Below are positions 1 to 9,046 of a DNA stretch of 64,000 nucleotides, one piece after another. The stretch is from assembly GCA_049643885.1 (NCBI GenBank), contig JBARQV010000033.1, positions 11,229 through 75,228 of the forward strand. Reading direction: 5' to 3'. The translations under genes and the position numbers were made by a program. The number at the start of each line of letters is the position of its first letter. Positions within the stretch are counted from its first letter, which is position 1. The notes beneath the pieces are model-generated. The model was not told where the DNA came from and ran no database searches. It saw nothing but the letters and a program-made list of their open reading frames with translations. Source of the stretch: Candidatus Omnitrophota bacterium (GTDB lineage Bacteria; Omnitrophota; Gorgyraeia; Tantalellales; Tantalellaceae).

Positions 1-7
1 GCAAGAA

Positions 8-3000
8 GTGGAAGTAGACGGCAAGCCGATGCAAATAACCCTGCCAAGCGAAGTGGGGAATCGAAAGGTCCTGAGCCATGAGATCTTCCCGGCATGGACC
101 GGCGGTTTCCATGTATCGTTCATTCTGGAAAAGACACCGGAGGACATAGAAAATCTCAATAAGGCAAGAGACGTATCCCTGGATAGGATCGGAGCAAAAA
201 TACGGGCGTTGGAAGAAATTCCTGAACAAGAGAGAACACCAGAAACGGAAACCGGGAGAATGCTGGAAGTCCTGAAAAAAGTTCAAGCCGACCTGAAAGC
301 ACGCGACATGAAAGACGTGAGAATTTTTGTCGCGGTTTCTCTTGAAGGAGAAAAACTCAATGCTCATATAATCAGTGGAGTTATAACGGTGCCTGTCGAT
401 CAGCTGGAGAGAACTGAGGTATTGGCATATTCTCTTGGACATGAATCGTCTCACCAGTTTGTCCCTGAAGTATACGAAATAGACGATCCGCAAGTAGAAG
501 AGGATAAAGTTATTGAAGTCGGCGTTGAAGTATTCGGTCCTATGATACAGGTATCCATTGCCCGGTCACCAGAGGGCGGATATGGGATAAACGTTACATC
601 CATAGATATTAATTTAAAAATGGATGACTCGAGGGCCGTGGAAGCGGTAAGAAACGCTTTTATCATGGCCTGGAACCAGCTTGAAGGACAGAAAGCACGC
701 GGCGAAGAGATAGATCCGGAATATGAAGATTTCGTCAGGGCAATGCTCGAAAGAGAAGGCCTGGAGCTGAAATATGAGGCGGCCCCGGGAGTTACGTTCC
801 TGATCGACGACGCCGGCATGCGGGTCCTGTCGGAAAGAACCCCGTTAATGGTGACCCAAGCTTTCCCGGTTGCCCTGGCGCGTGAGATGCTTGTCGCCGA
901 ATTGCCCGAAACCAGGCCAGTCGTTCTACAATCGCTTCTTGCGAATATCGCCAGCGGAAGGGGGATGTTTTCCTGGTTTTTGAGCCCGTTATTATGGTTA
1001 TTAACCATAGGCTCGACTCCGATTCATGAGTGGGCGCATATACAAGCAATCAGGAGATATGGCATAAGCCCTGAATTACTGTCCCCGGCCCAGAGACGTG
1101 GAGAGGATGTTGGAACTTTCTCACTAATATGGAGTCTTATCAAGGGCGAGGTCATAGTTCATAAAGCCCTTTCTGGAGTTGATGAAGCTCACATGGAGGT
1201 ACATGTAGCCGGAGTGAGAGCTAATCTTCGTGCATCTTTTTATTTTGGGATTTTACTGGGAGGTGCAATCGCTGCTTATCTTTCTCTGTCGCCTCTGGCA
1301 TTTTGGCCCATGGTCTTTTTGTCGTATCTTACAGCAATCAATTTCATATCCGTGGTGGTCGAATATTTTGGAAGAGGAGACTTGGCGATGATACTGCGAG
1401 AATCTAAATCTTCTGTTTTTGAACTAATCACCCGCAGGCCGCATCTGGAGGAGTCGATGTTAGAAAGATATTTTTATGGAGAAAAACGAAGACTTTCGAG
1501 GTTGGCGAAAAGAATGGGCGTAAATATCAAGGGATTTGAAGATGACATTGAAAAGATTCGTTACGAAGTCGCAAAAACGCAAGTAAGTTATGTTATAAAA
1601 TGGCGAGCGATTGACCAATCGTTATTAGGAGATTATACCACGCCACTATGGATAGCTGGTAAAAAAGATGAGATTTGGCAGAAAAGGTTTAATGAAATTG
1701 TTTCGTATCTACCCAGAGGCGCGCCAATATTTAACGAAATAAAAGATGATCAAGTGAAAGCAAAGATCATTGCAGAAGTTATTGGTGAAATAGAAGAAGC
1801 TGTGGGTGCCGCCCGGCTCTCGGAGCGCGAGGGATACTTCCACAGCGTTATTGGAATGGCTGATAGAAGCGGTTATTCTGAAATAATGCACGCACGGTGG
1901 GGGAAGGAAATCAATGACCTTTACTTAAAGGTGAAAAAGGACGTGGCAGAAAAGAGAAGGGAGAGAGGGGATTTAAGTTCAGGCTATGCTAAAGGGATGC
2001 TTATAAAAGAAGTATTTGATTCGATCCGCAGGAACGTTAAAGGCGACCTGAGGCAAGCCGAGAACTATGTTAAGTACCATTATGTGCTCGACATCAACCA
2101 GGTCCTCAGCGATAAAAAGGGTGTTTGCAGGCATATGGGAATAATAACGGCGATGATGTTAGAGAAACTCATTCAGCAAAAGGAACTTGATGGCCTTGCC
2201 TTCTATGTTCGCAGGGATTTTCACGCGTGGGCGATGTATGCAACAACTTACGGGGAACTCATTGTCCTGGATGCTGCCCAAAGTATCGATGGGGTTGTAG
2301 AGCAATTCGGCTATCTTGAAGATTTTGCAAGGGCGCAAGACCCATGGGCGGTTCTGAAATCTCCTGCAAGTAGCAACCGGGAAAGAAGAGCATGGGCACG
2401 TTGGTATGCGAAATATGGTAGGGATTCGGAAGATTTGATGCGAAATCCCACAGCTGTAAGGATGATTGTGGAGCGCGTGCAACGACAGGCTGCGCGAGAA
2501 AGAGCAGCAGAAGCAGAAGGCAGAAGAGATTATTACTATGGGACGGTCCTGACAAGTGGGATGGGGCCGGATCAATTGGGCAGGAAAGATATGTTTTATA
2601 TGCCCGCTGCGGTTTTGCAAGAAATTATACGGCAAGGTCCTATTGAGGAGGCTGCTCCTCAACGCGTTGAACCGGAAGATCTGGTCCGCGAGCTTGAACC
2701 TGTGGCCAGGGACGTGGCGGAAAGGTTCAGAAGGGAAGGGATTAGCCCGCAAATGTGGAATATGTACAGGAGAGAGCTTATGGCAAAAGGGCGTAGGCGC
2801 AGTGCCGTTTTCCGGAGGATACATAAGATAATCCTTGATTTCCATACATCCATTTTAATAAAGGAACAGTATAGCAGACCGGTAAGGCATGCTTATGTAC
2901 GAGACTCCGAAGCATTAAACATTGCGATTGACAGAGAACTGGCCACGGCGCGTGAGATGCTTGCCGCCGCGCCGCCAACCGTTGTGCCCGGTAAAGGTGT

Positions 3001-6000
3001 CCTCTGGTTTATCTCGGGGGCTATTTTCGGGCTTATGAACCTTTTGGGGATTACTATTACTCCGGCCAGAAAGGATTTTGTTGAAGATTTTATTATTCCT
3101 TTACTTGAAGAAGGCGGTATGCTCCTGGTGCTGTGTTATTGGGGGGCGTTGCCATATTTATTAGTAAGGCTTGGATTTGCAATTATGCATGCAAGACGAA
3201 GCTTGATAAAGGCAATACTGGGGCGCGTATTCTTAGGCAGGGCACCCCCTGTGGGGGAAAAACCGATTTCTCAGCAAGTCATTGAACAGTTAACCATCCC
3301 CGCCATCGCATCAGCCGCAGCTCTCCTGCCCCTTATAGCTTTAGCTTTTGGAGTACCATTAAGCCCGGCAATATTCGGATTCGTTGCTGGGACAGGGCTC
3401 TTTGCCCATATCCTCGGGAACCGCTATGTTACGGAATTCAAGTCCCGCCTGCAGAAAGCTGTTCTGGGAGAAGAGCTAGGCATAGATTATGAAGGCCGCC
3501 CTGCCGCCTTGGAAAAAGTAAAAACAGACTATGAAACCCTGATACGCCCCCTGACAAATATTCCCTTTGATGAACTGCCGGGTGCGACAAAAGAGATATT
3601 GTTCGGGGCTGGAGTGGACAACGGGTTGGTAGAAATGAGTAGATCGGCAGGCAGAAACGCGAGGGATCTATTCCGGTCCGGTTTTCCAGTTCTAAAGGAC
3701 GCCATTTTGGTCGAGGGAGATCCTGACAGGACAAGGGAGAATCTAATGGCTATAGCTTCCGGCCTTGTAAGGATAGGCGCCGCAAGCGAGTCGTTCGGCC
3801 ATGCCGATTATGTGTTCAGGCTGGGCTTGCCGAAGCTTATACAGGCCTTCGGCCCGGAACTGATAAGGGAGCAGTGGGAAACTTTCGTGTTATTTGGAGA
3901 AACTGCCGGCAAGAATGCGAGATATCTTTTTGGAGCGACCTTGCCGGCGTTCAGGGAAACTATAATCGTAGAGGGGGACGTCCAGAGGACCAGGCAAAAT
4001 TTGCTGGACATCGGGAACAGTATTTTAAGAGTTGTGCCGGAAAACGATGAAATAGCTGAGGAATTACTTAATAACGCCTTGCCTGCGGTGAGCGGTATTA
4101 TCATCGTCGAAGGCGACGCGGAAAAGGCCAAGGATAATTTAAACAGGATCGGAAGCAGTGTTTTAAGAGTTCTTGAGGCAGCAGGCGATAAAGTGCGGGG
4201 CCTGTTCAGGCACGATTATCCCAGGATAGAGGCCGGGCTTGGCGCTGAATTTGTAAAAACACATTGGGAAGGCATTTTCAGATTGGGCGAAGCCGCGGGA
4301 ACGGCCGCAGGCAATTTCTTCAAAAACGGGTTTGCCGGCTTCATCCAAAGCTTTGGTTTAGATTTCCTGGAGAACAACTGGCAGGATATCGTAAAACTGG
4401 GTGAGATCGCGGGTAAGCGTTCAGGCTATGATGTAGGGAATATCTTTAACCGCACATTGGTAGGGTTCGCAAAGATCTATGGACTCGAATTCGTAAAAGA
4501 CAATTGGCGAGATCTCATGGATATCGCCGGATCTACCGGCAAAGACGCCGCTTTTCTTTTGTCAAACGGGTTTTATAGTCTGGAAGAAGGATTCGGCGCT
4601 GATTTTATTAAAGCGCACTGGAAAGACCTTGTGGAATATATCAAAACGAACGGTGAATACGCACTGGAACTGGTCAAGGACGGCTTACCGTCCATGAAAG
4701 AAGCGATCGTAGTAGCGGGAGATGAAGCGGAAACGAGGCAAAATCTCCGAGCCGTGGGCGAGGCGCTTGCGTCTGTCGCCAGGGCCGCGGGGAAGCAAGA
4801 AGCGACGTACGTTTTCAGTCAGCATCTTCCCGATATTAAAAGGCGGTTCGGTAAGGAGTTTATAAGGGATTGCTGGAAGGACATGCTGGGTCTGGGCGCG
4901 AGCACCGGTAAGAATGTAAGATATTTCTTCAGATACGCGCTTTCCGAGTTCAGCAAGACGATCGTGGTAAAAGAGGACGTGGAAAAGACGCGTGAAAATC
5001 TCCGCGCCATAGGAAATGAGCTTGTAAAACTCAGCAATGCGGCGGGAGAACATGCGCTTGTAGTATTTGAGTACGGGATACCCGCCATGATAGGGGCGAT
5101 CGCGGTCGAAGGCAATGCAGAAGAAACTGCAAAAAATTTAGACATTATAGGAAGCGAACTTATAGCTTTGGCGCTGCTGGACGGCGAAGATGCCGGCAGA
5201 CTGTTCGAATATGGACTTCCGGCTCTCGAGAAAGTGCTTATAGTCGAACAGGATGCTGAAAAGACAAAAGAAAATCTTGCTAGTGCCGGAAAGGAGCTTT
5301 TTGAGCTTGCCGCAAAAGTTACAGGTGAGATGCGTATTTTTTGGCGAAGCATATTATGGTCCCAGGATGATATAGTTGCGGAAGGCGATTTCGCGCAAAC
5401 GATCGAAAATTTAAAGACTGTCGGAAAAGACCGCGTAGAATTCACCAATAACGCGGGTATGGGCGGAATTGCAGAAGATTTCTTTAAAACAGTTTTCAAT
5501 TTACGCTCACGCTTCGGACTGGATTTTCTGCCATGGCGTGATGTTATAAAATTCGGCAGAATACACTTTATTTATAATCTAAGCAACAAAGTGGGATGGG
5601 AATTTGTAAGGTCTTATTGGGGGGATTTAATAGAGATCGGTGCTGTCCTGGGGTACAAAACAGGAGAGATGTTCAATGAGGTACTTCCGGCGGTAAAATC
5701 CCTGGTTACTCCCGAAAGTATTCAGGATCTGGTCAGATGGGTGTCGTTAGGCGATCCTGTTGATACCGATATATTGAAGGAATTTCTGGCTTTATCCCGC
5801 GAAGAAAGGGCGGATTATTTTAATACCCGCGAGGATGAGCTGGCCAGAATACGCGATGGCAAATTCGACATAGCTGATCAAAAACACCTTTTTATCGGAT
5901 ACCGGCTTATTCTCGACGATATCCGAGACAATCCGACTGTAAAAAAAGACATAACATATAAAGAATATTTATCTTATGTAAAAGCCGGAAAGCCCGCCAA

Positions 6001-9000
6001 GGAAAGATTCCGTGAAAAAGACCGAGCGGAGCTTACCTACTTATGTTATGAAGCATTGAAACTCATGAATTTTATCAGAGAATTGAAAGCCAGAGCCGAT
6101 TCGCTGGGGAGACCACTTGTGTTGGTTGAGAATATTACGTACGGTTGGATGGCCACAATACCCATTGAAGAGGAGATCAAAGCCATGGGTGTAAAGATCA
6201 TAAAGACCAAAGCCGGATCGACCTTTGCTCACGATAATCCGACGGTTATGCACGGCTTGAATCCTCATGGCCCGGATGATTCCAAACTTTTTAGCGAAGA
6301 AGATCTGAGATATTTCGTAGAAGAACAGCCTTTGGTGTTGGTGGTGGACGGAACTTATTCGCTTGACCCGCAAAAAATGGCGCGTTTTAGAAGAAAAGGG
6401 GCACGATATCCAGATGCCCACCAGGCTTATCGTAATTATTTCCACGCCATAAGCGGAGAGCCTAAAGATAATGATTTTGATATCGATAGATTGCGACTTG
6501 GAAGCAAGCTTAAAGAAGATAATGTTTATAAGGCAGTAAGGAGAAGTGCCGAAGACATCAAGCCGGCGCCCGAAAGGGGTAATTACCAGATGAGATTCTG
6601 GTATCCGGGAAAGAAGTCACTTGGATTAAATAGCCAGAGAAAATCAAGAAAACTTTCAAGCCAATTAGATCTTATCAATTCTAAAAATACGGACGAACCT
6701 CTTTTAGATAAAATCAGCGGTCCGACATTAATTTTTTCTGTGGCTAACATGGAAGATGAGGCCATACCCGATAGTGTCAGGCAGGGGGGGATATATCATA
6801 ATTCCGCGCATTTTGACGACAAAGAACCCTTTGGGAGAACGTTTATTGATGTTACACCTTACGGTCCGAAGATCTCGAATGAATTTCAAAATGCAGCCAT
6901 CGCGGAATACAAGCGATTAAGCCAGCAATTAGGAGTTGTGCCGCCCCTTGCCCCGCCTGCCGTGATGGCGAGGGAAAGCCGCTGGGCCCAGTATGCGGCA
7001 CCTATGGCCGGCGGCGTTCTGGGTTTTCTCACGGTATTTTTATTCGGCTCGGCATTGTTGCCGGGCATATTGAGCGTCTTGCTTTTATCAGCGTATTTTC
7101 CGCTTGCGAGGCAAACGGCCCTGGCGCGTGAAGTTGCCGGTGAAACGGGCGTCGCCGCTAGGCCCGTGGATACGTTCGGGGATATTCTTGGCAACTTCGG
7201 GCCTATTATCGGTCCCTTGGTGTGGCTCCATGAATTTGTTCACCGCCTTACCGGCGTGTTGGGCGTAAAAAGGCTAGGCATATTTAGCAGATTTATGGAC
7301 GAGGCAATGGCTTATTCGGTCGAATCGGTATTCGCCATGCCTGTAGTTGCTGTTTCTTCGATCGTGTATGGGTTAGTCATGCTTTTCATGCCCCCCAGGG
7401 GCGAAGAAGCCCGCGCCCCGCCTGCCGAACCGGGGATAGATTTCGAGGGCGAGTGGTTGACTGTGCCCATGATCGCTGAACGTCTTGAAGAAGAGCCACA
7501 ACTTACAATTGCAATATGGGAAATGCTCACACCGGAACTTAGGAAAGCTGTTGAGAGCCTGCTTAGTGAAGAGAGGAAAAGGCTGGTTAAGATCCGACTT
7601 TTTATTTATGAACACCTGGCTGAACTCCAAAGCAAGGAAGTTTCGAGTGATCTCGAAGATAGAAAGAACAGCGCAAGTTTACTAGAGCGGCAAAGAAAAG
7701 TTTTTGAGATCGGACGAAAGGGATTTGAAGCTCATGGAGTAGAGCATGGTTTAAATGTTTTTCTACAGATCATGCTGGATGGGCTCATCCGGAATGAATT
7801 TAAGGGCCCGCTAAATATGGGACCAAAAGAGTTCTTTGCCGGTCCTTACGGACCGCATTATATCGTTCTTGATCCGCGCAGTGTCAAAAAACCGGGCTTC
7901 GAATGGCAAGAGAGGCAGAACCATTTATTATATCTTGTTCCAAACGGGTCGGACTACAGGTTACTAATAAGCTTGGTAGATAAAGCACGTGATGAAGGGA
8001 TCATTAAACCGGAAGACGCCGGATTCATAAAGAACAGGATAACGACTTATGACATGTTCATTGCAATGACTAAAGAGGTTTCTGTTCCGGAGGAAGTACC
8101 GGCTACAACAGCAGCTGTTGAGGTTCCTGTTGCAGAGGAAGCGGCTGTTACTACGGTATTTGTTGAGGCCCCTGCCATTGCGCCTGCTGAGGTTATACCC
8201 GAGGAAGAAGTTCTTCCCGAGGCGCAGAGGGTATACTCAGCGGCGAGGGATCTTATTCCGGTGCTCCTGGATCTTATAAGGAGAAATTCACCGACTTACC
8301 TTGTAGGGCCTTCTTTTCTGGAGGATCTGGCGAAAGATGAGGGACGCAACAGGAAGGTGGAAAGGGTACTGGGCAAGGAAGGCCACAGGATAGATGCCAG
8401 GTATTGCGGGTACGATCCGACGCGCGCGGATCCGGAAGAAGCCTGGTTTGAAGAACTTACAAAACCTGGTGGAATTCTTGACAGAGCACTCAAAAGGTTC
8501 GGTATAGACGTTGTGGAAAACCCAACGTCAAGAATGACCATAAGGCTTGTCAGGGGGGCGGATGAAGAAAGGAACCAGGACAGAAGAAGTAAATTAGAAG
8601 CGTTAATTGTGAAAAGGCTCATGGATATAAATCCTGTCTTGAGATCAATGCTTGAAACAATGAAAGAAGAAGATCGGAAAAACTGGTTAAGGCAGTACGT
8701 GAAGATAATAGATGTAGATGTCGAAGGTATCGAGCATGTGAATCCCGTGCTGGACCTCTTTGCCGATGCCGGGGCGATGGAGCTGGACAGGTACGAGAAA
8801 AAAGATTACAAGGACGAAGCCCCTGACGAGCTTAAGGAACGATTGGTCATACTGTTAAAGCTTTCCCTGGGCAGTCTGGTCGATTCAGAGAGAGGTGACA
8901 TACTCGAAGGCCTGACCGCGGGTAAGCTTTACGGGGTTTTAGAAAGGGTTTTTTCGGGGCTAGCGTATTTCGCGGTCAAAAGAATAGATTGGGAAAGTAT

Positions 9001-9046
9001 AAGGGACAGGATAGATGCCGAGAACGAAGTAATAAGATCGCTGTAA
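8..9046 (+). CDS. Giant multidomain protein, 5'-partial (gene continues upstream of window); 3012 aa visible. Contains TM blocks with HExxH motifs, a transglutaminase-like Cys-His-Asp core, a long alpha-helical tandem-repeat array, and a C-terminal domain shared with the next ORF
   Basis: Uninterrupted ORF of 9 kb reaching the window edge with no stop upstream; TAA at 9044-9046; strong periodic coding signal; internal paralogy to downstream ORF at 9061. Confidence 0.85.
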   Translation: MEVDGKPMQITLPSEVGNRKVLSHEIFPAWTGGFHVSFILEKTPEDIENLNKARDVSLDRIGAKIRALEEIPEQERTPETETGRMLEVLKKVQADLKARDMKDVRIFVAVSLEGEKLNAHIISGVITVPVDQLERTEVLAYSLGHESSHQFVPEVYEIDDPQVEEDKVIEVGVEVFGPMIQVSIARSPEGGYGINVTSIDINLKMDDSRAVEAVRNAFIMAWNQLEGQKARGEEIDPEYEDFVRAMLEREGLELKYEAAPGVTFLIDDAGMRVLSERTPLMVTQAFPVALAREMLVAELPETRPVVLQSLLANIASGRGMFSWFLSPLLWLLTIGSTPIHEWAHIQAIRRYGISPELLSPAQRRGEDVGTFSLIWSLIKGEVIVHKALSGVDEAHMEVHVAGVRANLRASFYFGILLGGAIAAYLSLSPLAFWPMVFLSYLTAINFISVVVEYFGRGDLAMILRESKSSVFELITRRPHLEESMLERYFYGEKRRLSRLAKRMGVNIKGFEDDIEKIRYEVAKTQVSYVIKWRAIDQSLLGDYTTPLWIAGKKDEIWQKRFNEIVSYLPRGAPIFNEIKDDQVKAKIIAEVIGEIEEAVGAARLSEREGYFHSVIGMADRSGYSEIMHARWGKEINDLYLKVKKDVAEKRRERGDLSSGYAKGMLIKEVFDSIRRNVKGDLRQAENYVKYHYVLDINQVLSDKKGVCRHMGIITAMMLEKLIQQKELDGLAFYVRRDFHAWAMYATTYGELIVLDAAQSIDGVVEQFGYLEDFARAQDPWAVLKSPASSNRERRAWARWYAKYGRDSEDLMRNPTAVRMIVERVQRQAARERAAEAEGRRDYYYGTVLTSGMGPDQLGRKDMFYMPAAVLQEIIRQGPIEEAAPQRVEPEDLVRELEPVARDVAERFRREGISPQMWNMYRRELMAKGRRRSAVFRRIHKIILDFHTSILIKEQYSRPVRHAYVRDSEALNIAIDRELATAREMLAAAPPTVVPGKGVLWFISGAIFGLMNLLGITITPARKDFVEDFIIPLLEEGGMLLVLCYWGALPYLLVRLGFAIMHARRSLIKAILGRVFLGRAPPVGEKPISQQVIEQLTIPAIASAAALLPLIALAFGVPLSPAIFGFVAGTGLFAHILGNRYVTEFKSRLQKAVLGEELGIDYEGRPAALEKVKTDYETLIRPLTNIPFDELPGATKEILFGAGVDNGLVEMSRSAGRNARDLFRSGFPVLKDAILVEGDPDRTRENLMAIASGLVRIGAASESFGHADYVFRLGLPKLIQAFGPELIREQWETFVLFGETAGKNARYLFGATLPAFRETIIVEGDVQRTRQNLLDIGNSILRVVPENDEIAEELLNNALPAVSGIIIVEGDAEKAKDNLNRIGSSVLRVLEAAGDKVRGLFRHDYPRIEAGLGAEFVKTHWEGIFRLGEAAGTAAGNFFKNGFAGFIQSFGLDFLENNWQDIVKLGEIAGKRSGYDVGNIFNRTLVGFAKIYGLEFVKDNWRDLMDIAGSTGKDAAFLLSNGFYSLEEGFGADFIKAHWKDLVEYIKTNGEYALELVKDGLPSMKEAIVVAGDEAETRQNLRAVGEALASVARAAGKQEATYVFSQHLPDIKRRFGKEFIRDCWKDMLGLGASTGKNVRYFFRYALSEFSKTIVVKEDVEKTRENLRAIGNELVKLSNAAGEHALVVFEYGIPAMIGAIAVEGNAEETAKNLDIIGSELIALALLDGEDAGRLFEYGLPALEKVLIVEQDAEKTKENLASAGKELFELAAKVTGEMRIFWRSILWSQDDIVAEGDFAQTIENLKTVGKDRVEFTNNAGMGGIAEDFFKTVFNLRSRFGLDFLPWRDVIKFGRIHFIYNLSNKVGWEFVRSYWGDLIEIGAVLGYKTGEMFNEVLPAVKSLVTPESIQDLVRWVSLGDPVDTDILKEFLALSREERADYFNTREDELARIRDGKFDIADQKHLFIGYRLILDDIRDNPTVKKDITYKEYLSYVKAGKPAKERFREKDRAELTYLCYEALKLMNFIRELKARADSLGRPLVLVENITYGWMATIPIEEEIKAMGVKIIKTKAGSTFAHDNPTVMHGLNPHGPDDSKLFSEEDLRYFVEEQPLVLVVDGTYSLDPQKMARFRRKGARYPDAHQAYRNYFHAISGEPKDNDFDIDRLRLGSKLKEDNVYKAVRRSAEDIKPAPERGNYQMRFWYPGKKSLGLNSQRKSRKLSSQLDLINSKNTDEPLLDKISGPTLIFSVANMEDEAIPDSVRQGGIYHNSAHFDDKEPFGRTFIDVTPYGPKISNEFQNAAIAEYKRLSQQLGVVPPLAPPAVMARESRWAQYAAPMAGGVLGFLTVFLFGSALLPGILSVLLLSAYFPLARQTALAREVAGETGVAARPVDTFGDILGNFGPIIGPLVWLHEFVHRLTGVLGVKRLGIFSRFMDEAMAYSVESVFAMPVVAVSSIVYGLVMLFMPPRGEEARAPPAEPGIDFEGEWLTVPMIAERLEEEPQLTIAIWEMLTPELRKAVESLLSEERKRLVKIRLFIYEHLAELQSKEVSSDLEDRKNSASLLERQRKVFEIGRKGFEAHGVEHGLNVFLQIMLDGLIRNEFKGPLNMGPKEFFAGPYGPHYIVLDPRSVKKPGFEWQERQNHLLYLVPNGSDYRLLISLVDKARDEGIIKPEDAGFIKNRITTYDMFIAMTKEVSVPEEVPATTAAVEVPVAEEAAVTTVFVEAPAIAPAEVIPEEEVLPEAQRVYSAARDLIPVLLDLIRRNSPTYLVGPSFLEDLAKDEGRNRKVERVLGKEGHRIDARYCGYDPTRADPEEAWFEELTKPGGILDRALKRFGIDVVENPTSRMTIRLVRGADEERNQDRRSKLEALIVKRLMDINPVLRSMLETMKEEDRKNWLRQYVKIIDVDVEGIEHVNPVLDLFADAGAMELDRYEKKDYKDEAPDELKERLVILLKLSLGSLVDSERGDILEGLTAGKLYGVLERVFSGLAYFAVKRIDWESIRDRIDAENEVIRSL
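2110..2280 (+). other. Transglutaminase-like cysteine-protease core (Cys-His-Asp) inside ORF 8-9046
   Basis: KGVCRHMGIITAMM...DFHAWAMYATTYGELIVLDAAQ matches the G-x-C...HAW...D signature of transglutaminase-like superfamily. Confidence 0.6.

Follow-up and report, generated by a model that had tools for sequence, protein, structure and literature searches.

A putative ARM-like helical repeat forms a tandem array in a giant polytopic membrane protein of Candidatus Omnitrophota

The first gene in a 64,000-nucleotide (nt) stretch of a Candidatus Omnitrophota genome (contig JBARQV010000033.1, positions 11,229 to 75,228; the whole stretch is referred to as the window) encodes a giant protein that carries a 2-kb tandem array of short repeats. 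The locus raises the question of what these repeats are, whether their number changes, and what they do for the protein. An original prediction, made from the DNA letters, had read them as two interleaved repeat types, A and B, which would constitute an alpha-solenoid scaffold or binding surface and a likely hotspot for repeat-number variation. Our analysis favors, with some confidence, a different description: an all-alpha domain of ~700 residues, made of a cap and 16 diverged copies of one ARM-like repeat, that would form a rigid, membrane-tethered solenoid platform for docking or spacing. The open reading frame (ORF) in question, ORF1, is already open where the window begins:

2 to 9046, plus strand: ORF1, C-terminal 3,014 codons of a giant polytopic membrane protein, open at the window start

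The full-length protein comprises 3,957 amino acids (aa) and is represented by P0126 (MGB2879626.1, from a Candidatus Omnitrophota metagenome-assembled genome). An exact match to the neighboring gene led to contig JBARSM010000028.1 of an Omnitrophota metagenome-assembled genome (GCA_049644745.1), in which the first gene has this full length. Neither Pfam (E <= 0.01) nor NCBIfam reported a family in the ORF1 protein, and a PDB sequence search returned no match. Hydropathy analysis (Kyte-Doolittle) indicated ~12 hydrophobic segments. Residues of ORF1 are numbered such that aa 1 corresponds to nt 2 of the window.

The array placed at 3560-5710 is real; all 13 peptides that had been quoted for it lie in frame in the ORF at 2..9046. 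It consists of a lead-in motif (aa 1187-1198) followed by 17 tandem units (aa 1199-1901, nt 3596-5704, plus strand) in the order cap-A-B-A-A-B-B-B-B-A-B-A-A-A-A-B'-B. Thus, 1 capping unit is joined by 8 units of type A (45-49 aa) and by 7 clear units and 1 degenerate unit (1839-1864) of type B (37-42 aa). These values replace the earlier estimates of more than 10 copies of type A, about 6 of type B and ~40 aa for both types, and the two types are mixed in runs instead of being interleaved in regular alternation. The units, as parsed along the ORF and scored with hidden Markov models (HMMs), are as follows:

3560 to 3595, plus strand: lead-in motif IPFDELPGATKE, pattern LP-x-ET+-x-IL-..-FG (regular-expression search)
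3596 to 3703, plus strand: unit 0, N-terminal cap, aa 1199-1234 (core HMM, 29 bits; partial match of the first HMM, 14.7 bits)
3704 to 3850, plus strand: unit A1 (IG subtype, which is type A)
3851 to 3961, plus strand: unit B2 (W subtype, which is type B)
3962 to 4099, plus strand: unit A3
4100 to 4240, plus strand: unit A4
4241 to 4354, 4355 to 4480, 4481 to 4594 and 4595 to 4705, plus strand: units B5, B6, B7 and B8, four W-subtype units in a row
4706 to 4849, plus strand: unit A9 (also in the AlphaFold2 [AF2] model)
4850 to 4960, plus strand: unit B10 (also in the AF2 model)
4961 to 5098, 5099 to 5236, 5237 to 5371 and 5372 to 5515, plus strand: units A11, A12, A13 and A14, four IG-subtype units in a row (the AF2 segment ends at A12)
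5516 to 5593, plus strand: unit B15, degenerate and shortened W subtype, aa 1839-1864 (leave-one-out score, 3.2 bits; B-only HMM, 22.8 bits)
5594 to 5704, plus strand: unit B16, the last clear unit

At core position 8, the capping unit 0 carries a residue other than W or G. The array as a whole carries a net charge of -20 and a single cysteine. Just past B16, at 5708-5752, the stretch T-P-E-S-I-Q-D-L-V-R-W-V-S-L-G resembles the first helix of a further unit and is possibly a C-terminal cap; the HMM did not match this segment. A 226-aa ORF with a TTG start runs antisense to the array (4819-5499, minus strand) and is probably a chance ORF within the giant gene.

The relatedness of the units was assessed with a leave-one-out HMM. 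Fifteen of the 16 units scored 21-51 bits (z = 7-24), while 200 shuffles per unit averaged -0.6 to -2.9 bits and never exceeded 11.3 bits; B15 was the sole unit to fail. None of the remaining ORFs of the window was found to carry the repeat. MAFFT aligned the A and B units in one frame, with 9 extra N-terminal residues (I-I-V-E-G-D-x-x-x) in A, and the C-terminal 25-34 residues are common to both. An A-only HMM matched the second half of the B units in register, and a B-only HMM matched the A units likewise. A single iterated core HMM collected 621 units in 122 proteins; W (281 units) or G (139 units) at core position 8 identifies both types as subtypes that occur family-wide. The repeat is ~38 aa long, with the 34-aa core consensus KEFLKKYWPDLVELAKAAGENAGYLFQYGLPAVK and strongly conserved core positions G19, N21, F26, G29, L30 and P31. 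Given the common frame, the in-register cross-matches and the one core HMM that covers both, types A and B are the IG and W subtypes, both old, of one repeat with a common origin, and the notion of two repeat types was abandoned. An interleaving of two unrelated repeat families is very improbable. The N-terminal halves do differ (IIVEGD...T..NL..IG in A, G.EF[IV]K..W.D in B), and the cross-type HMM scores within ORF1 are weak (-2 to 9 bits), but these weak matches all fall in the expected register, the scores reach 10-18 bits in the homologue P0002 from Elusimicrobiota, the core HMM recognizes both types, and both align to the same ARM columns. Regular alternation of the subtypes was rejected in view of their neighborhood in the family units, where 67% of adjacencies are of the same subtype versus 59% expected.

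The diverged state of the units also bears on the proposed hotspot. A recently expanded tandem repeat acting as a copy-number hotspot (contingency locus) would be expected to leave its trace in the DNA, and we regard this explanation as having next to no likelihood here. Tandem Repeats Finder returned 0 rows for window positions 3000-6500 (minimum score, 30). From unit to unit, the best matches in DNA span only 14-36 nt, and the non-reference copies share 65-93% identity with the reference. On the protein level the units are about 30% identical (20-51% for units of the same type), and units from different phyla resemble one another as much as units within the ORF1 protein do. Four public assemblies proved 100% identical to the window. 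A comparison of repeat number between strains, which the original prediction had suggested, covered five near-identical sequences (P0127, P0128, P0129, P0137 and P0138; partial or full; three of this protein and two of the Elusimicrobiota homologue). They show 99.9-100% identity, carry point differences elsewhere and align across the array free of gaps; these strains are very close, which makes the comparison a weak one. Relatives at intermediate distance were sought with the array protein in genome and metagenome contigs, and none was found. Over deep time the unit number has changed, with 17 units in ORF1 and 12 in the distant P0002. In the latter (L005 13552-13941), neighboring B units share 79% DNA identity at an offset of 114 nt, or one unit, which points to single-unit duplication as the mode of change and to a more recent duplication there than in the window's gene. 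These two observations speak for a hotspot insofar as unit duplication does occur over evolutionary time, but nucleotide tandems that dissolved long ago are reported for long Omnitrophota proteins in general (10.64898/2026.06.07.730766, a 2026 preprint). The array, old and stable, repeats at the protein level only; the hotspot reading is not supported at this locus.

A five-unit segment was modeled with AF2 from a 48-row family alignment, which included 47 five-unit windows cut from family members:

4595 to 5236, plus strand: modeled units B8-A12, aa 1532-1745 (214 aa)

The model consists entirely of helices, with no strands, and reached a predicted local distance difference test score (pLDDT) of 96.0 and a predicted template modeling score of 0.89; all five models scored >= 94.7 pLDDT. 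Each unit is predicted to comprise two main helices plus a helical turn of 4 residues, with the I-V-V-x-G-D segment as a 5-residue nonhelical linker. A reading of I-I-V-E-G-D as a strand or catalytic motif was rejected on the basis of this linker and of its replacement in relatives by L-I-T-D-x-E-S, which we read as a helix N-cap. The whole array, modeled from a 13-row alignment, was likewise entirely helical at a pLDDT of 62.9. Foldseek placed HEAT solenoids (RanBP5/karyopherins, SF3B1, RRP12 and PP2A-A) at the top of the matches to this model of pLDDT 63, together with a designed ARM protein (E values of 1e-4 to 3e-3; template modeling [TM] scores of 0.1-0.25).

For comparison with known repeats, the family profile was aligned by hhalign to five copies of the designed-ARM consensus, which was confirmed against PDB (5AEI and relatives, E 1e-199). 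The alignment scored 30.6 (E 5.3e-4; probability 31%) over 163 columns and kept one register over four repeats. In 100 composition-matched shuffled units, the mean was 8.8 and the maximum 17.4, and 0 of 100 reached 30.6. The family motif G-L-P-A-h-K falls on G-A-L-P-A-L-V of ARM helix 2, W..LV.LG.AAG falls on L-W-A-L-S-N-I-A-S-G of ARM helix 3, and N-A..LF falls on N-E-Q-I-Q-A-V of ARM helix 1. The same profile gave E 0.97 against consensus TPR and E 0.96 against an unverified HEAT-like consensus. Since the ARM score lies above all shuffles and the TPR and HEAT-like controls were negative, the repeat appears to be specifically ARM-like in its sequence pattern. The proposal of an alpha-solenoid scaffold or binding surface is supported with respect to the predicted all-alpha tandem-repeat domain and its in-register alignment to consensus ARM; the binding surface would follow from the fold class only.

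Several results weigh against the solenoid platform. The hhalign probability versus ARM was only 31%, and the Pfam Arm, HEAT and TPR models matched none of the 48 family windows at E <= 10. A Foldseek search of the five-unit model against PDB yielded no significant match (best E, 0.6; TM score, <= 0.26), and DSSP analysis showed the two main helices of the A units to be partly merged into one long helix. These last two results mean that a classical ARM/HEAT hairpin stack was not demonstrated. Mean-field covariation analysis of 293 nonredundant units gave a best long-range coupling of 1.98, below the maximum of 2.24 in a column-shuffle null. Lastly, the positive-inside rule delivered contradictory signals along the protein.

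The stretch just ahead of the array is hydrophobic in character:

2996 to 3418, plus strand: cluster of ~4 hydrophobic (transmembrane-like) segments immediately preceding the array (Kyte-Doolittle scan)

This cluster has a K/R-rich loop between its second and third segments. In P0002, too, a hydrophobic cluster precedes the array closely (hydropathy scan), as is the case for the arrays of P0014, P0021 and P0031 (by eye), and its H-x-L-x-N ending is common to P0002 and P0021, again judged by eye only. The array, following directly on the transmembrane cluster of a giant polytopic protein, would be tethered to the membrane, where it probably serves as a rigid solenoid platform to dock other polypeptides or to hold the downstream domain at a distance. 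A scaffold or docking role is probable; the stacking of the units into a solenoid, the binding and the side of the membrane are features that we infer.

Other arrangements of the same helices have to be weighed against such a platform. Long kinked helices might form an up-and-down bundle or rod of the coiled-coil or spectrin type instead of a stacked solenoid. In the AF2 models, DSSP analysis shows helices 36-53 residues long that continue through the G-x-N turn, the best (insignificant) Foldseek matches of the confident model are seven-transmembrane proteins, BAR domains and designed filaments, and the hydrophobic positions 8, 11/12, 15, 18/19, 22, 25/26, 29/30 and 33 hold a 3.5-residue phase across the turn in our reading of the consensus. 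Yet G19, G29 and P31 are near-invariant, as expected at helix breaks, the repeat matches three-helix ARM repeats in register, and several of the top nonsignificant couplings lie at i+j of ~39-43, as expected for a hairpin centered on the G-x-N turn; we consider a bundle or rod improbable. The main rival to the docking platform is a passive helical spacer or stalk, which would lack a specific binding surface and would set how far apart, or how elastically linked, the membrane and the downstream domain are. It would fit with the structural nature of the strongly conserved positions (G19, N21, F26, G29, L30 and P31), with the lack of conservation of the ARM helix-3 asparagine ladder, which is replaced by variable E/K/R, and with a unit number that varies widely among relatives (1 to 17 matched stretches). 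The W/G at core position 8, however, aligns with the ARM groove tryptophan, and ORF1 and the Elusimicrobiota homologue have both retained the run of four W units, which suggests that length is not the only constraint. A purely passive role is unlikely, though it deserves more credit than a bundle. A bolder version of the docking platform, for which we see a small chance, would make this a new bacterial ARM-like family in which runs of W units (such as B5-B8) form a tryptophan ladder and an importin-alpha-like groove for extended peptides on a membrane-tethered platform. If such a groove exists, the platform might dock, for example, the products of the neighboring giant kinase/acetyltransferase genes or host or prey proteins.

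To map the distribution of the repeat, 1.84 billion representative proteins were searched exhaustively with a profile, which yielded 120 clusters at E <= 1e-3 and 67 at E <= 1e-10. The 120 representatives have 1-17 matched stretches each, and many members are 3,000-7,000 aa long. Among ten members looked up, those with a named source belong to Omnitrophota, Elusimicrobiota and Margulisiibacteriota. Both subtypes are found across the family. Pfam and NCBIfam did not match the repeat in any family member scanned, a homologous-protein search with a 27-unit alignment returned no match, and a PDB sequence search with the five-unit profile gave marginal matches only, to designed helical proteins, RPN5 and PP2A-A (A-beta, E 0.72). 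The family is not mentioned in 10.1101/2023.11.21.568195 or 10.64898/2026.06.07.730766.

The Elusimicrobiota homologue P0002 (2,544 aa) has its 12 units in the order B-A-A-A-A-B-B-B-B-A-A-A. Units of ORF1 and P0002 pair strictly by type, some cross-phylum scores equal those within one protein, and both proteins have four B units in a row (B5-B8 in ORF1). The genomic context of the homologue consists of housekeeping neighbors, with no conserved synteny. The lead-in motif, LP-x-ET-(Q/R/K)-x-IL-..-FG, precedes arrays in 7 cases (ORF1, P0009, P0013 [twice], P0027, P0031 and P0040), and this recurrence sets the array apart as a domain of its own that has a dedicated cap at its N terminus. By BLAST, ORF1, P0002, P0014, P0021 and P0035 have a ~480-aa N-terminal domain in common in addition to the array, and P0003 has this N-terminal domain and the conserved domain downstream of the array in common with ORF1; the E values for the N-terminal domain in these six proteins range from 1e-21 to 1e-36. 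It covers about residues 71-567 of P0001/P0126, upstream of the window, and contains the motifs V-V-I-Q-D-A-H ... E-G-G ... I-T-G-G-F-H-T. Pfam did not match the N-terminal domain; its two motifs may resemble the GxxH pairs known from the TraB/Tiki/erythromycin-esterase superfamily. A different branch of the family (P0004, P0005, P0007, P0008, P0013, P0019, P0022 and P0027) has a large conserved module after its arrays, marked by the motifs G-A-S-F-V-K, G-D-R-R-x-D-I-P, V-K-G-I-P-Y-G-L-W-G-L-N-A-G-V-C-I-A, P-G-I-E-P-S and S-N-R-S-D-I. Up to three copies of it are present in P0007, and Pfam gave no match in the carriers scanned (P0005, P0008 and P0019).

Further features of the ORF1 protein and its surroundings were recorded. 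The domain that follows the array is itself conserved:

6056 to 6928, plus strand: conserved domain of ~290 aa downstream of the array, common to P0003, P0010, P0033 and P0060

It has the motifs E-N-x-x-Y-G, K-x-G-S-T-x-x-H, V-V-D-G-T, Y-R-N-Y and H-F-D-D-K, likewise follows an array in P0010, P0033 and P0060, and had no Pfam or PDB sequence match. ORF1 also encodes three HExxH motifs, HESSH (440-454), HEWAH (1025-1039) and HEFVH (7229-7243), which are motif matches without Pfam support; the latter two lie in hydrophobic segments, as in intramembrane metalloproteases. At 2120-2281, a Cys...His...Asp pattern (GVCRHMG, FHAWAMY and VLDAAQ) is spaced like the core of a transglutaminase-like cysteine protease, and Pfam reported no match for this region at E <= 0.01. 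ORF1 opens a run of six large ORFs at 2-40192 (plus strand), which encode 3,957 (full length), 3,456, 2,320, 905, 2,454 and 1,103 aa. The intergenic gaps measure 12 to about 200 nt, and the first three ORFs are 12-14 nt apart. Pfam domains are confined to the second ORF, with a protein kinase at residues 2178-2412 and a GNAT acetyltransferase at residues 2873-2953; no domain reached Pfam's own cutoff in the other ORFs of the run. GC skew is positive in all 2-kb bins of the window (1-64000; cumulative value, +4.87) and AT skew in nearly all, which fits the location of nearly all large genes on the plus strand, presumably the leading strand.

Most of the giant proteins in Omnitrophota and related uncultured phyla lack annotation and count as "dark matter," and one recurrent building block of these proteins is now defined by a 34-aa core profile, two subtypes, a capping motif, ~120 clusters, a confident all-alpha model and a tested link to ARM. 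Annotators thus gain a usable domain model, and experimenters gain an expressible fragment of 214 aa. A false lead has also been removed, as the array is not a variable locus. The finding does not constitute a new kind of biology; helical-repeat scaffolds are already known from giant Omnitrophota proteins, in which HEAT and TPR "repeat scaffolding" was reported to be common (10.1101/2023.11.21.568195, 10.64898/2026.06.07.730766).

Among known systems, the "archaeovorins" (West-Roberts et al. 2023, 10.1101/2023.11.21.568195) come from the same phylum and resemble ORF1 in their many hydrophobic segments, long unannotated stretches, helical repeat modules and very large ORFs that adjoin on one strand. 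The ORF1 protein, at 3,957 aa, is nevertheless far smaller than the sizes given there, and the hallmark SecA DEAD, glycosyltransferase and peptidase C39/S8 domains were not detected in it by Pfam. With respect to the repeat, the 34-aa TPR consensus differs and is unmatched (hhalign E 0.97; no Pfam TPR hit). HEAT repeats (karyopherin-beta, PP2A A subunit and SF3B1) are similar in unit length and in having two main helices per unit; HEAT solenoids also top the Foldseek list of the whole-array model (E values of 1e-4 to 1e-3), and the family profile matches PP2A A-beta weakly. Pfam HEAT gave no match, though, and the TM scores of 0.1-0.25 come from a model of low confidence (pLDDT 63). The likeness to ARM repeats (PF00514; importin-alpha, beta-catenin and designed armadillo repeat proteins [dArmRP] such as 5AEI) extends further: 42 aa per ARM compare with tandem units of 37-49 aa here, the prediction is all-alpha, the motif G-(A/L)-(I/L)-P-x-L-(V/K) stands at a helix start, a long helix ends in A-(S/A)-G followed by N/D, and the tryptophan of the family falls on that of ARM helix 3. 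In contrast to ARM, the helix-3 Asn aligns to core position 13, which is a variable E/K/R here, the Trp is restricted to W-subtype units (281 of 621), W and IG subtypes are mixed, with a 9-aa extra linker in IG, and the repeat sits in giant polytopic membrane proteins of bacteria; it is not recognized by Pfam Arm, and its confident AF2 model has no significant PDB match. Judged by its sequence pattern, the repeat would be ARM-like, specifically so relative to the TPR and HEAT-like controls, and may work like an ARM/HEAT-type solenoid while not being filed in Pfam Arm. It is a previously uncatalogued family that belongs with the helical repeats of the ARM/HEAT-like kind.

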